From contig CAWEXU010000030.1 in the NCBI GenBank assembly GCA_963813075.1, positions 96,001 to 160,000 on the forward strand: a stretch of 64,000 bases of DNA, in the 5' to 3' direction. Of this stretch, positions 10,497 through 16,224 are shown piece after piece. The notes under the pieces were generated by a model. That model made no database searches, was not told the origin of the DNA, and saw nothing but the letters and a program-made list of their open reading frames with translations. Each line of letters opens with the position of its first letter. Positions within the stretch are counted from its first letter, which is position 1. A program made the position numbers and the translations under genes. Source of the DNA: Methanotrichaceae archaeon. Its GTDB lineage: Archaea > Halobacteriota > Methanosarcinia > Methanotrichales > Methanotrichaceae.

Positions 10497-11204
10497 TCAT
10501 CCCCGCATGAACTTGTCCCAGCCCTGATAGTTCTCCTTGAGGATGGTGCAGATCTTCTCCATCATGTCATATGGTATTCCCACTACAACCTCCTCATCCT
10601 CCAGGCCTGCGTTTCTCACCGATCCGTCGCAGCCCAGTGAGACGTTAACCTCTCCTTTCAGGTAAGGGGAACTGGTGGCATCAACGCAAAAGGACTGAAT
10701 CCCGGCGGTGTTGAAGGTCATCCGGCCCCCTTCCTCGAACATCGCCGCCTGGACGATCCTCCTCGACTGAAGTGGATTTCCCACGAATATAACCACATCC
10801 GGCCTGACCACCATCTTATCCAGGGGGGCCACATAACTGGCCACAGTGCTGCCGGGAAGGATGCGGGGCATATTGGCGGCGATCATGGCGCCAGCGTCCT
10901 TAGTGGAGCACTTGTGCAGTTTGTCAAAGTACAGAGATCCAGTGCGGATGTTCTCCGGACACTCCACCAGGCCCAGGCCGGAGGCGCCACCCTTACACTC
11001 ATGATAGTCGGCATGGGCGAGATAGCTCTTCCCCTCAAGTCTCGCTCCCTGGACCATTGAGCAGTAGCGGAAGGGCCTCTCCACCATATTCAGGTCCTTG
11101 GGGATCTCCTCCTCGCTCTTGAACAGTCTCACGCCCACGATATTATCCCGTATTCCCAGGGAGGACTTCAAAATGTCCGACATCTCTTCAAGATTCATCA
11201 TCAT
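10497..11204 (-). CDS. DUF169-family protein (Cys-rich, probable metal or Fe-S binding)
   Basis: VGVRL, RYCSMVQGAR, HECKGGASGLG, PDVVIF and SLGCDGS motifs typical of DUF169. Confidence 0.85.
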   Translation of the reverse strand: MMMNLEEMSDILKSSLGIRDNIVGVRLFKSEEEIPKDLNMVERPFRYCSMVQGARLEGKSYLAHADYHECKGGASGLGLVECPENIRTGSLYFDKLHKCSTKDAGAMIAANMPRILPGSTVASYVAPLDKMVVRPDVVIFVGNPLQSRRIVQAAMFEEGGRMTFNTAGIQSFCVDATSSPYLKGEVNVSLGCDGSVRNAGLEDEEVVVGIPYDMMEKICTILKENYQGWDKFMRG

Positions 11205-11426
11205 ACACCGGAAATTAACTGGTGGGCATGAGATTTGGAGCTTGCGCTCTGGAATGCACCCATCACAGGCTCATCATCCTCAAGAGCATCGATATTGGCC
11301 CAGATCGCATGGATGGCACCTCTGTCATTCCTCAAGCACCCTTTTCGCTCTTAATCTGAATCTATGAAGAAGATCATCAGTCCGAAAGATGTATAAGTAT
11401 AAATATTTTGCAGCAAACATGGCCAC

Positions 11427-11873
11427 ATGAATGAAAAGCTGGACAGCGCCGAAGATCAGGCCGGACCTTGCGGAATTCTATGTGGCTCATGCCCCTTGGG
11501 AAGCGCCAAGATAGCCGAGGCTGCGGGCCGGACCAGACAGAACATCGCAGACTGCGATATTCCAAACTGGGCTCCCTTTGTGCCTGGGGGAAAGGCGATC
11601 GATTGGGCGGCAGTGGATCTGGGCCTGGCCTGGATGGAGGAACATGCCCGCTGCGCAGGATGCGAGAACGGCGGAGGGCCTCCCGACTGCACCATCAGGG
11701 TTTGCGCTCGAGAGAAAGGATACGATCTATGCAGCTCCTGCGAGGAATTGGAGGCCTGCACCAGGTTCGAATGGCTCAGAGATCAAGGCCAGATGATAAA
11801 AGATAGGCTGAATGAGAACCGCGGTCTTTCCAGGGAGGAGTACATCAAAAAGATGACCGCACAGATGCCCTGA
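11427..11873 (+). CDS. DUF3795-family Cys-rich protein
   Basis: GPCGILCGSCP, CAGC, CTIRVCAREKG and CSSCEE...C pattern. Confidence 0.85.
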   Translation: MNEKLDSAEDQAGPCGILCGSCPLGSAKIAEAAGRTRQNIADCDIPNWAPFVPGGKAIDWAAVDLGLAWMEEHARCAGCENGGGPPDCTIRVCAREKGYDLCSSCEELEACTRFEWLRDQGQMIKDRLNENRGLSREEYIKKMTAQMP

Positions 11874-11930
11874 GGGGCTTTGTAGGAGGAACGGGCTGGG
11901 GTAAAGATCCGGAGCTCTCACCATTCCAGG

Positions 11931-11945
11931 CGCAAACTATATGTA
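11931..11945 (+). promoter_or_regulatory. putative archaeal BRE/TATA promoter for the downstream structured RNA
   Basis: cgcaaa-ctatatgta lies about 25 nt upstream of the first helix; no ORF is served. Confidence 0.45.
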
Positions 11946-11959
11946 TTAATCGTGCCTAT

Positions 11960-12433
11960 GAGAACAGGCCGCGTTTTGCGCTGCAAGAAGCAGAGATCCA
12001 GCAATCCGACTGGGCTCTCAGGCCAATAGAGAGATCAAAATACGCATCCTACCGTAGATGCGCCGCTCCCCAAGGCCTGGTGAGGTGCTGTCCCGTAAAC
12101 AGCATCTAAAGCTCATATGGGGCTTAAAAGGGCGAGAGAGATATGCACGCCGTGATGGGCGTAGCAGCATGCCCTCAAGCTGGATTGTAATTCCTGCACC
12201 CAGGACGCGACAGGTGCTGATAAAGAGACGAAGAGCAGACCCAGCATCCTTCGGTGTATTGGGTTCCCGTGAGACGGACGCTGTGTGATAGTCCAGTGCT
12301 GTGTCGCCTCAAAGCAGCATGATGTCGAGATCTTGGGCGAGGTCAGGCCTGCCACCGTGGTGGTTCTGGCTCCTGTGAATAGGACGCTGTGGATCGGCGT
12401 TGACCCGCCCGGGAATCGATTGTATTCATTTTT
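11960..12433 (+). ncRNA. candidate large structured non-coding RNA of about 470 nt, family unknown
   Basis: No credible ORF; more than a dozen helices with + strand G-U pairs, a CUUCGG-capped hairpin, long-range pairings and a T-rich end (see findings). Confidence 0.65.
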
Positions 12434-12590
12434 AAAAAAATGCCTCTTGAAACTGTTTACAGATCTAATATAATGGCTCTTTCGGTAACCGGCCTTTCTC
12501 TGACCTCATGAATTAGCATTTCAATTCTATCGCCATCTTGAAAAGAGTTAAATCTATAGCCGCCCTTAATATATTGGTATAGGGAAACAG

Positions 12591-14600
12591 ATGATAGAAC
12601 ATAAATTGCACGATAAGGGCATGGGCCCGCAACCGAGCGAACCTCATAAAACACATCGAGGCAGGCATGAAGGCCATGTAACTGAGGATTTCAAAAGACG
12701 ATTCATAATATGTCTGATTGTTACTATTCCAATCCTCGCCCTCTCAGCATTTATTCAAGATCTGTTTCACTTTAAATTAGAGTTTTCAGGCTCTATTTAT
12801 GCCTTATTCCTTTTATCCACATTTGTTTACTTCTACGGAGGATATCCTTTTCTCAAGGGATTTTTCAATGAAATTAGGGATAAAAACATAGGGATGATGA
12901 CACTGATAGCCACGGCCATCAGTGCAGCTTATTTTTATAGTTCGGCGGTGGCCTTTGGCCTTAAAGGTGAAGTCTTTTTCTGGGAGTTAGCCACACTGAT
13001 CGACATCATGCTTCTCGGTCATTGGATCGAGATGCGATCTGTATTGGGAGCTTCCAGAGCCCTTGAAGAGCTCGTTAGGATCATGCCTTCTGAAGCACAT
13101 TTGATCAAAGATGGCCAGACGATGGACGTCAAAGTCGATACCCTCAAACCTGGAGACCGAGTACTGGTCAAGCCTGGTGAGAAGATACCAGTGGATGGGG
13201 CTGTGATCGACGGGGAGACAAGCGTCAACGAATCGATGCTCACAGGCGAATCCAAGCCCGTTACTAAGAGAGCGCATGATAATGTGATAGGCGGTTCCAT
13301 CAACGGCGAAGGCTCAATCTCCGTAGAAGTTCAGAAAATCGGCTCGGAGACTTATCTCAGTCAGATCATCGAATTGGTCAGGCAGGCCCAGGAGAGCAAA
13401 TCAAAGACTCAGGATCTGGCCGATAATGCCGCTCGCTGGCTCACCATAATATCTCTGAGTGTCGGCGCTATTACTCTTGCCGCCTGGCTCTACTTTGGCA
13501 GGGACTCGGCTTTTGCTGTGGAAAGAGCAGTCACAGTTATGGTTATAGCCTGTCCTCATGCACTTGGTCTGGCGGTCCCTCTTGTGGTTGCAGTCTCGAC
13601 CTCACTCGCGGCAAAATCAGGTCTACTGATCAGAGACAGGTCCGCGTTTGAGAAGGCGAGGGACATTCAGGCGGTGGTCTTCGACAAGACTGGAACTCTG
13701 ACTGAGGGCCAGTCTGGAGTAACTGATGTCGTAGCTCTTGCCGGGCTAAGCCACACCGAGGTCTTAAGAATGATCGCTTCTCTGGAGGCATACTCCGAGC
13801 ATCACATAGCAGCAGGAGTTTTAAGAGCCTCAAAAGAGGAAGGGCTCGATCTTAGTCCTGTTCATGAGTTCAGGGCAATTCCCGGAAAGGGGGTGAGTGG
13901 CCAGGTTGAGGGAAATAGCTGGATGGTGGTGGGCCCGGGCTACCTGAGAGAGAACAATATCGACATAAAGGATGATCAATTGAATAAGCTGGCGGAAGAA
14001 GGAAAGACGGTCGTCTTCTTGCTTAGAGAAAACAGGCCCGTTGGGGCTGTGGCCCTGGCTGATATCGTAAGGAAGGAATCCAGAGAGGCAATTGACAAGC
14101 TTAAGTCGATGAATATCAAATGCATGATGCTAACAGGAGACAATCGTTTTGTGGCCAAGTCGGTGGCGGATGATCTGGGCTTAGACGATTTCTTTGCCGA
14201 AGTGCTTCCTCATGAAAAAGCCCAAACCATAAAAAATGTTCAAAAAGAATATGTTGTGGCTATGGTTGGGGACGGAGTCAATGATGCCCCTGCCCTGGTG
14301 CAGGCAGACGTGGGAATTGCCATAGGAGCTGGCACGGATGTAGCTGTCGAGTCGGCGGACATTGTTCTAGTCAGGAACGATCCAAGGGATGTCGCTGGTA
14401 TCGTTAGTTTATCCAAGAAAACATACGACAAGATGTTCCAGAACCTGTTGTGGGCCACCGGCTACAACGCTTTGGCCATCCCTCTGGCAGCCGGCATCCT
14501 CTATGGCTATGGGATACTCCTAAGCCCTGCCATCGGCGCAATTCTCATGAGCGCCAGCACGGTCATTGTGGCCATTAATGCCAGGCTTCTGAAAATGTAG
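12591..14600 (+). CDS. copB: CopB-type P1B heavy-metal (copper) translocating ATPase
   Basis: His-rich N-terminus, [32 protein letters not shown] and YN/MSAST motifs; the CPH motif indicates the P1B-3 class. Confidence 0.92.
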
Positions 14601-14659: not shown

Positions 14660-14830
14660 GATCTGAGCGCCAGAAGAATGTGACCACTCCCACCAATAAA
14701 TTGGCAGGCATCTAGGCTTTCGCCACAGACTGTAGCCCCAGTCTGAGAATGTTTATAGCGGCGTTATGGTCCCTATCCAGAGTCAGACCACAGAAAGGAC
14801 AACTATGGACTCTTTCTGATAGATCTTTTT
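14660..14830 (-). ncRNA. predicted TnpB omega/reRNA (right-end scaffold plus flanking guide); 5' limit approximate
   Basis: Follows the established TnpB architecture: the scaffold overlaps the tnpB 3' end and right-end hairpin, and the guide follows TCAC. Confidence 0.6.
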
Positions 14831-15812
14831 GAACCACTTTACCGCAACCAGAGCATATTTGAGATGTGTTTTTGGGATTCACTAGTTCGACACGTTTACC
14901 GGCCCATTCTGCCTTGTAAGATGTGGTAGTTATTAGTTTGCTCCAAGCAGCATCCGATATATGCTTTGCAAGACAATGATTCTTGACCATGCCCTTGATA
15001 TTCAAGTCTTCGAAGGCTATAAAGTCATAGGATTTAACCAGGGATATGGAGAGCTTTTGAACAAAATCATCCCTCTTGTTGGTAATTCTTTCATGAACCC
15101 TATGAACCACTTTTAAGGCTCTAGCCCTTTCCGGTGTTCCTTTTTCTGCATTTGATAGCTTTCTCTGAGCCTTTGCCAGAGCATTTTCTTCATGAACAAA
15201 AAATCTTGGATTATCTACCTGCTCGCCATTTGATAGGGTGATGAAGTTTTTCAAACCCACATCAACGCCTATTGATAATCCGGTATTCGGAAGAGGTTCA
15301 TCCGGTTCAACTTCAACCAGGAAGGATACAAACCATTTTCCGGTAGGCATTATTCTGATATTAAGCCTCTGGATTTCTCCATCTACAGCTCTATGAAGCT
15401 TGATCTTGATATCTCCGATCTTGGATAACCATAGTTTGCCGGGCTTCAGGGAAAAGCCTGATTGAGTATAGGTGAAGCTATCGTACCTGCCATAGCCCTT
15501 GAACCTGGGATATCCCGGGTTTTCTCCTGCCTCGACTCTTCGGAAGAAGGCTTGATAGGCCAAATCAACTCTTTTGACGACTTCCTGTAGAACCTGAGAA
15601 TGGACTTCTTTCAATTCGAGCTTTTCTTCTTTCCATCCTGGCAAAAGCTTCTTGGTATCGTAATAGGAGAGAGATTTGCCTTCTTGCTCGTAAGCGTTCT
15701 TCCTGATGGCTAGTACTTCGTTATAGGTCCATCTGCAAAGCTCCAAGGTGTCAGCCATCTTGGTTCTCTGAGATTTTGTAGGATAGATCCTATAGCGAAG
15801 CACTTTCAGCAA
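14712..15812 (-). CDS. tnpB: TnpB RNA-guided endonuclease
   Basis: YRIYPT HTH start, GYPRFK, RuvC-I GVDVGL, RuvC-II FEDL, zinc finger CSGC/CPFC, RuvC-III DRDHNAAINI. Confidence 0.97.
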   Translation of the reverse strand: MLKVLRYRIYPTKSQRTKMADTLELCRWTYNEVLAIRKNAYEQEGKSLSYYDTKKLLPGWKEEKLELKEVHSQVLQEVVKRVDLAYQAFFRRVEAGENPGYPRFKGYGRYDSFTYTQSGFSLKPGKLWLSKIGDIKIKLHRAVDGEIQRLNIRIMPTGKWFVSFLVEVEPDEPLPNTGLSIGVDVGLKNFITLSNGEQVDNPRFFVHEENALAKAQRKLSNAEKGTPERARALKVVHRVHERITNKRDDFVQKLSISLVKSYDFIAFEDLNIKGMVKNHCLAKHISDAAWSKLITTTSYKAEWAGKRVELVNPKNTSQICSGCGKVVQKDLSERVHSCPFCGLTLDRDHNAAINILRLGLQSVAKA

Positions 15813-15813
15813 A

Positions 15814-16224
15814 TCACTTCACCTTTTGCATCTCTACATATCGTTCTATTACATCCTTGGTAGCATCTCCACAAGTGCCAACATAGTAAGATGGATTCCA
15901 AAGATGGCCATCCCAAAGCTGATCTCTTAGTTCAGGATGCGTTTCAAAGAGCTTCTTTGCCGTAATGCCTTTGAAGATCTTGGCAATGTTAGCAGGAGCA
16001 AATATAGGATGAGCTGTCATGAAGAGGTGAACATGATCCGGCAGGATCTCCTGATTGATCAATGTAATTCCCTTCTGCTTTGCTATCAATTCATGCAACC
16101 AATGAAGGTCTTCGGCGATTGAACCAATAAGAACCTTCCTTCGATACTTTGTTGACCATACGAAGTGATAATACACGTTATAGACGCATCCCCTTGCGTT
16201 TATACAATGCTCTTGCTTAGTCAT
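15814..16224 (-). CDS. tnpA: IS200-type Y1 HUH transposase
   Basis: YHFVWSTKYRRKVL, PDHVH (HUH), LWNPSYYV, catalytic Y in IERYVEMQ. Confidence 0.97.
   Translation of the reverse strand: MTKQEHCINARGCVYNVYYHFVWSTKYRRKVLIGSIAEDLHWLHELIAKQKGITLINQEILPDHVHLFMTAHPIFAPANIAKIFKGITAKKLFETHPELRDQLWDGHLWNPSYYVGTCGDATKDVIERYVEMQKVK

Follow-up and report, generated by a model that had tools for sequence, protein, structure and literature searches.

A candidate class of large structured RNA, built on a duplicated four-way-junction module, in Methanotrichaceae archaea

Introduction

What occupies the gap at 11931-12433, with a DUF3795 gene on one side and a P-type ATPase gene on the other, in the genome of a Methanotrichaceae archaeon? 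The first-pass annotation of the window, by which we mean the whole 64,000-nt stretch analysed, saw in this gap a multi-domain non-coding RNA transcribed on its own and possibly belonging to a new archaeal class. Large, highly structured RNAs are rare and often prove to be catalysts or unusual assemblies; the available text of PMC5737381 likewise describes them as frequently catalytic. The orphan classes described so far, OLE, GOLLD, ROOL and raiA, are bacterial, whereas the Methanotrichaceae RNA is archaeal.

Results

A Pfam scan placed the DUF3795 gene (11427-11873, + strand) upstream and the copB-like P-type ATPase gene (12591-14600, + strand) downstream of the gap, as had been annotated. 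Both lie outside the RNA unit: the former adjoins the RNA only in the closest relatives, and in place of the latter relatives have other genes. The gap was said to hold no credible open reading frame, and indeed none of the five ORFs of 50-80 amino acids that touch it has a Pfam match. The lengths of 77 homologues were evenly spread over the three frames (27/27/23), and no conserved small ORF was found among the RNA homologues. Every short sequence string quoted in the first-pass annotation is present at the position it gave. Further downstream, the start of copB is underlain by a remnant (12463-12618, - strand; 56% identity by tblastn) of an AMP-phosphorylase-like gene (glycosyl transferase family 3), a gene that stands 3' of the RNA in two close relatives. 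Beyond copB lies a complete IS605-type tnpA-tnpB pair (14712-16224, - strand). Judged by the gene remnant and the IS605-type pair, the region 3' of the RNA is recently rearranged. Elsewhere in the window, directly upstream of a DUF169 gene, a motif at 11205-11255 is kept in nearly all of the 30 loci examined, and the genes beyond it vary.

The RNA is about 453 nt long (11968-12420, + strand) rather than the 470 nt first estimated, and lies between an archaeal promoter (11931-45) and a T-tract. The promoter region (11926-11967, + strand) comprises a CGCAAA motif at 11931-36 and a box at 11938-45, which we take to be BRE-like and TATA-like respectively, followed by a conserved spacer up to the start. 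The box had been pointed out before and is conserved in relatives: across 76 copies whose upstream flanks are unlike, the conserved stretch opens about 5 nt before the BRE and runs to the start, with most positions 80-100% conserved. A 7-bp inverted repeat, degenerate in the window copy and a possible operator, lies within the spacer of most relatives. At the other end, the T-tract noticed earlier is present at 12420-12433 (+ strand) and is likely to be the terminator; RNA contigs stop at 12398-12410.

Fourteen RNA runs from 10 studies contain more than half of the words of 11874-12590. Metatranscriptome contigs from four runs of four studies, mapped to 11000-13400, covered 11977-12410 and almost nothing of the flanks; the runs were selected for containing the stretch, and such contigs speak to its presence as a discrete piece rather than to strand, ends or level. 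Mismatch-free contigs span, run by run, 11980-12403, 11982-12398, 11977-12351 and 11979-12365, and the RNA contigs pass through all three domains of the fold without a break. Flank coverage was absent in three of the four runs; in the fourth, an identical contig reached a depth of 1936 versus about 6 for flank contigs of a relative. A conserved promoter of its own, together with discrete contigs confined to the unit in RNA libraries of all four studies mapped, supports the independent transcription that had been proposed.

Folding of the single sequence gave z-scores that were not near zero and only modestly beyond shuffled controls, without strand preference (-2.43 on the + strand, -2.88 on the - strand, -2.54 for 11965-12424). 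Of the almost continuous + strand fold originally described, the multi-domain architecture is upheld by covariation, whereas the single-sequence z is modest and lower on the - strand. We assign the RNA to the + strand because, over 45 core pairs in 211 homologous sequences, G-U cells outnumber A-C cells 1483 to 126. Three domains lying next to one another emerge from the consensus fold of each of three subtypes, and again when 11965-12424 is folded for minimum energy. Domain 1 (11968-12211, + strand) is variable, measuring about 120-300 nt in relatives, and is closed by helix P1 (11968-78 with 12201-11). Within it are hairpins at 12043-62 and 12084-106 and a conserved helix at 12144-66 with one bulged A (A12163); four helices of the domain, comprising 31 pairs, are 92.2% paired in 23 sequences, a level that 0 of 500 shuffles reached. 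Domain 2 (12214-12320, + strand) consists of a long closing stem and a perfect four-way junction, in which stem 12235-38/12299-302 meets arm A (12239-64), arm B (12265-78) and arm C (12279-98; loop consensus UGYNARAKUC). Domain 3 (12324-12420, + strand) is a homologous copy of this module, with stem 12341-46/12400-05 and arms A (12347-70), B (12371-84) and C (12385-99; loop UGGAU). In both junctions the branch point has zero unpaired bases. The model of domain 3 matches domain 2, the two domains can be aligned, and one covariance model (R3, built on alignment A6, in which one of 58 rows is out of register) scores both modules, with E-values of 4.5e-14 and 3.4e-11. These comparisons establish domains 2 and 3 as duplicates of one module.

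Across 43 sequences, pairing reaches 86.7% over the 72 pairs of domains 2 and 3 (0/500 shuffles; 35-43% in slid controls), and 38 of these pairs show changes on both sides. Because kin inflate plain covariation counts, we counted events on a tree. Among 45 core pairs in 211 sequences this gave 42 double changes versus 3-9 in six slid controls, and pair-keeping changes exceeded pair-breaking ones (472 and 265), so the compensatory changes looked for in homologues are there. All 24 positions that are conserved at 97% or more fall within the two junction cores. A tree-based scan of about 20,000 column pairs, a weak test that hardly flagged known pairs, found no pseudoknot or kissing-loop covariation (best P 6e-4); plain mutual information was dominated by phylogeny.

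The helices proposed earlier fared unevenly when scored in 23 relatives of the window copy's subtype. Well kept were those at 12043/62 (91% paired), 12084/106 (89%), 12371/84 (87%) and 12383/401 (98%) and the CUUCGG-capped hairpin at 12239/64 (93%). At 12129/75, proposed to enclose ACGCC/GGCGU, the inner helix and its extension held (95%) and the enclosing helix did not (45%). Helices 11981/93 (53%), 11993/12019 (56%) and 12109/25 (33%) were poorly kept, the alignment around such helices being uncertain. None of the three long-range helices was supported: 12207-19/12294-307 was 58% paired, a value matched by 489 of 500 shuffles, with one compensatory change, and 12069/12337 (65%) and 11965/12351 (74%) conflict with better-kept helices.

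By BLAST, homologues occur in 35 of 36 same-genus genomes, whereas the 24 genomes from other families gave none. The survey was extended with covariance models built on the 3' domain: R1 was positive in 50 of 74 other genomes of the family, and R2 in 80 of 104 other Methanotrichaceae genomes, with between 1 and 12 matches per genome, fragments included. Of the 58 other genomes in the same genus, 56 were positive with R2. No RNA was found in 77 other-family genomes of the class or in 146 other genomes of the phylum. The search for homologues therefore yielded a multi-copy family found only in Methanotrichaceae. Within the family, the RNA is dispensable: it was not found in one genus (0/7 genomes) or in three small genera; a weak R2 match in the negative genus was false, lying inside gyrB. 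Among the matches listed by a GTDB-wide pattern scan, R1 confirmed 38, all archaeal, whereas 42 from bacteria were due to chance, and 12 of 40 further listed entries also matched; covering listed matches only, the scan leaves room for distant relatives. Two of six distinct IMG/VR contigs are genuine carriers, one copy adjoining a tyrosine recombinase and the other ParA, and a BLAST search of phage and plasmid collections returned no copy.

The source genome has five copies by profile search, one of them divergent, and R3 finds exactly two modules in each. Mean pairwise identity among 77 full copies is 65%, and full copies are approximately 414-508 nt long (89 measured, roughly). Short forms of about 320 nt have a small domain 1, and fragments and deleted copies are numerous. 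One locus carries an apparent promoter and a single module (L432:1501-1601), a divergent form has long loops on both C arms (L429/L430:1500-1700), and in L088 a deletion has merged domains 2 and 3 into one module. At four further loci (L092:1474-2107, L063, L038, L068) a foreign ORF stands in place of the middle, 5' or 3' part of the RNA.

Rfam 15 gave no match over the window RNA at E-values up to 10, and none over homologues of 4 + 6 loci, short forms included. The reported lack of RNase P, SRP, tRNA, group I and group II signatures agrees with this result and with an empty ARAGORN search of the window. The source genome has separate genes for RNase P, SRP RNA and 16S and 23S rRNA, and its rRNAs, RNase P and SRP RNA showed no relationship to the window RNA by nhmmer at E 10 or by R3 at E 1. 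Suspected likenesses to 23S rRNA helices, the 16S 3' end and SRP were not borne out, and a group I P7-like motif is not conserved in homologues. Several other identities were rejected: a group I or II intron, as the RNA is intergenic with its own promoter and has no Rfam match; a cis-regulatory leader or riboswitch, as there is no fixed class of downstream gene and the T-tract ends the RNA; a MITE or non-autonomous IS, as terminal inverted repeats and target duplications are absent; and a retro-transposed RNA, as the promoter was copied along with the RNA and the 83% complete source genome has no reverse transcriptase above the cut-off. On these comparisons the RNA represents a previously uncatalogued large archaeal class of a broad kind, the large structured orphan RNA, that is already known. 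Our search of the main text of articles, largely outside subscription journals, found no description of such an RNA in Methanothrix/Methanosaeta; large motif screens could list it in their supplements.

A putative separate small RNA lies directly 3' of the large RNA in 69 of 139 distinct copies, in both main subtypes. Its unit comes about 60 nt after the end of the large RNA, where another promoter precedes a small hairpin RNA in which a CCUCCU tract occurs twice; the hairpin has a 10-bp stem, maintained by G-U changes only, and carries the anti-Shine-Dalgarno tract in its loop and again in its 3' tail. It forms a multi-copy family in its own right, as a small RNA-like unit of about 60 nt with its own promoter. 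The source genome has 11 copies (about 11 per 2.7 Mb), of which one lies at G000:C30:15519-15624 on the - strand (L112:1348-1453) and three stand in tandem at C30:89465-89809. The small RNA occurs in 65 of 74 genomes of the family and in 3 of 4 genomes of one sister family; none turned up in 67 genomes searched from the largest sister family, and Rfam had no match. An inverted repeat lies between the TATA box and the start in both its promoter and that of the large RNA (window 11946-11966 and homologues), possibly marking repressor sites. One lineage has a further conserved element, the third, approximately 100 nt beyond the small RNA in 28 distinct copies (L015, L023, L104 and others). It includes what may be a promoter, its AGGAGG tract is complementary to the tail of the small RNA, and it could represent either an antisense sponge or an inverted small-RNA relic.

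This arrangement raises the possibility that the large RNA forms one half of an addiction or defence cassette made of RNA only, in which the two RNAs would jointly act on translation, one restraining the other. CreTA and type I toxin-antitoxin pairs are models for a two-RNA cassette of this kind. The association is tight for a small RNA with so few copies per genome, its CCUCCU is identical to the end of the source genome's own 16S rRNA, two large-RNA copies in the source genome border a restriction/Mrr island, and the large RNA is patchily distributed, with fragments present. We nevertheless think a cassette unlikely: the tail of the small RNA shows no conserved pairing with the large RNA (mean z +0.28 in 37 pairs), the small RNA is also present in genomes that lack the large one, the window copy has no adjacent small RNA and still appears in RNA runs, and a conserved small ORF is absent. 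Methanosarcina mazei sRNA41 is trans-acting and, in the available text of PMC5867862, proposed to mask ribosome binding sites; its likeness to the small RNA is at the level of description.

Around the 139 distinct copies we found 176 protein clusters, of which 140 were scanned; most were unrelated housekeeping genes, though the set also included a few transposases, one integrase, Mrr and BREX, and no neighbouring protein was conserved across the copies. DUF1699, the commonest neighbour (18/139, mostly in one lineage), was rejected as a partner since it occurs in 105 of 105 genomes of the family. It has 1-20 matches in each, and we found no solved relative of it. A tRNA is present in 4 of 135 downstream flanks. 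The ORF directly after one Methanotrichaceae copy (L160:3424-4413) has a ubiquitin-family match (PF00240, E 1.9e-30). A pair of copies in the source genome, 97.5% alike across a 555-bp stretch that begins 14 nt ahead of the promoter and closes with the final base of domain 3, brackets 2.3 kb of cargo at the island edge. In one relative the same cargo lies between a fragment and a full copy, and another relative has one copy and no cargo. The arrangement indicates that copies here multiply as DNA, through duplication and recombination. Next to the two RNA copies, the island itself (G000:C30:1-13000) carries several Mrr genes, partly duplicated, and a restriction-modification gene.

Such mobility could also mean that a recombinase or transposase encoded elsewhere uses the RNA, or its DNA, as guide or attachment part, the unit being a non-autonomous mobile element or integration hotspot. 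Consistent with this are the flanks of 107 promoter-bearing copies, 76 unlike upstream and 91 unlike downstream (counts inflated by drift at orthologous loci), the left boundary, sharply set 5 nt ahead of the BRE, the bracketed cargo that the single-copy relative lacks, and the tyrosine recombinase and ParA neighbours on the two IMG/VR contigs. Even so, this explanation is quite improbable. Terminal inverted repeats and target duplications showed no excess over shuffled pairs (5.32 vs 5.24; 4.93 vs 4.91), no transposase, reverse transcriptase, HNH or IscB gene recurs as a neighbour and no reverse transcriptase passed the cut-off in the source genome, and both ends of the RNA are base-paired, leaving no free guide. 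Moreover, the Hsp20/tRNA-Gln and HDAC loci are stable across species, and none of 26 relatives without the RNA at the DUF169 locus offers a clean empty site there, synteny being broken.

The arm-C loops invite a third alternative, a tRNA-elbow mimic or ribozyme, in which the loops of domains 2 and 3 would dock and fill a tRNA-binding site, or the junctions would form a catalytic centre. On this view the arm-C loop of domain 2 would be a T-loop (UGNNA) and that of domain 3 a D-loop-like GG loop. In 211 sequences the domain 2 loop begins with U (201) and G (210) and has A (186) in fifth place, the domain 3 loop reads U (203), G (210), G (201), A (189), U (203), and an invariant G-C pair closes the arm as in a T arm; the frequency of catalysis among large structured RNAs (PMC5737381, as far as its available text goes) also speaks for this view. 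Against it, ARAGORN and Rfam gave no match, the arm-C loops do not covary, both loops are of the long type in divergent copies, there is no likeness to the source genome's rRNAs, RNase P or SRP RNA, and RNA contigs run unbroken across the three domains; we regard it as decidedly unlikely. Finally, a decayed protein gene or neutral repeat with a chance fold, for which the modest z-scores, no better on the + strand, and the common fragments might be cited, is already refuted by covariation, in keeping with the G-U bias, the evenly filled frames, the lack of Pfam matches and the discrete RNA contigs.

Discussion

Homologues, covariation and RNA contigs agree with the original proposal of a multi-domain non-coding RNA outside Rfam and of a new archaeal class, and the window RNA is almost certainly a functional structured RNA. 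For its role, our preferred reading, to which we give a probability of roughly 0.45, is that of an abundant trans-acting scaffold or decoy, analogous to GOLLD, ROOL and raiA and not a member of any of these classes. The RNA is a stand-alone gene, as its conserved promoter and the contigs confined to the unit show. The polymerase probably starts about 25 nt past the gene's own TATA box and terminates at the T-tract to yield a stable product of about 450 nt, whose exact ends we infer. Covariation shows that this product folds into two copies of a rigid four-way-junction module behind a variable 5' domain. Because there is no fixed neighbour and no variable guide, the RNA would act in trans and by shape, not through pairing with a neighbouring gene. 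The invariant junction cores and arm-C loops would form a docking surface, perhaps duplicated for avidity, which might bind a housekeeping protein, a machine or other copies of the RNA, as in the scaffold or decoy roles proposed for GOLLD, ROOL and raiA. Copies and their promoter would multiply by DNA duplication and recombination, without an RNA intermediate, as seen at one locus and presumed elsewhere. Several points weigh against a scaffold: the tight link to the small RNA is left unexplained, no pseudoknot or kissing-loop covariation was detected (in a weak test), the family does not depend on the RNA, fragments and deleted copies are numerous, and the contigs, from runs chosen for containing the stretch, do not inform on strand, ends or level.

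How close is the Methanotrichaceae RNA to known families? The available portions of the comparison literature (PMC5737381, PMC5867862, bioRxiv 10.1101/2024.12.08.627333, PMC12990946, PMC2864571) allow a partial answer. GOLLD, as described in the accessible parts of bioRxiv 10.1101/2024.12.08.627333 and PMC12990946, resembles it in being large, multi-junction and non-coding, conserved in its 3' part and variable in its 5' part, and sometimes carried on viral contigs. The window RNA differs in being archaeal, shorter (320-510 nt against 700-830 nt) and without an Rfam match, in its duplicated module and multiple chromosomal copies, in its rarity beside tRNA arrays, and in the lack of any covarying kissing loops found. 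ROOL is like it in size class, in having several multistem junctions and few invariant bases, and in apparent abundance and dispensability, so far as PMC5737381 and bioRxiv 10.1101/2024.12.08.627333 describe it in their available text. ROOL, however, has three pseudoknots and resides in bacterial prophages, and both GOLLD and ROOL cages are built by pseudoknot or kissing-loop contacts, whereas for the window RNA no pseudoknot and no such covariation was detected (again in the weak scan) and Rfam has no match. Nor was the prophage or tRNA-array location of GOLLD and ROOL seen, with two contigs of a viral collection as the sole exceptions. OLE and raiA are likewise abundant structured RNAs of anaerobes, to go by the portions of the literature available; unlike them, the window RNA has no Rfam match and no fixed partner gene such as oapA or raiA. 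HEARO, the omegaRNA of IscB, is comparable as a multi-copy structured RNA in varied contexts, and HEARO RNAs occur in methanogens. The window RNA is set apart from HEARO by a promoter within the conserved unit, hence no flank-derived guide, and by the lack of an Rfam match; no HNH, IscB, IsrB or RRXRR ORF was found beside RNA copies among 140 flank ORFs scanned, and an RRXRR search of the source genome was empty, as was its control. The OLE/ROOL/HEARO comparison drawn at first is therefore right as to size class, and the likeness goes no further.

A bolder extension, which we regard as a long shot, is that the RNA is a polymer of one perfect four-way-junction module, with one, two or perhaps three per molecule, that might assemble into a protein-free multimer and, together with the anti-Shine-Dalgarno small RNA, throttle translation in the dominant acetoclastic methanogens during starvation or virus attack; it would then be the first archaeal large ornate RNA. 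If, on the other hand, the RNA proved to be a GOLLD-like cage, its novelty would be lower than that of a new RNA class. The two homologous junctions and the natural short and single-module forms make the RNA suited to cryo-EM and pull-downs. Its carriers, each with several copies as a rule, are most of the Methanotrichaceae, acetate-using methanogens of digesters and sediments, and the RNA is prominent in their metatranscriptomes.
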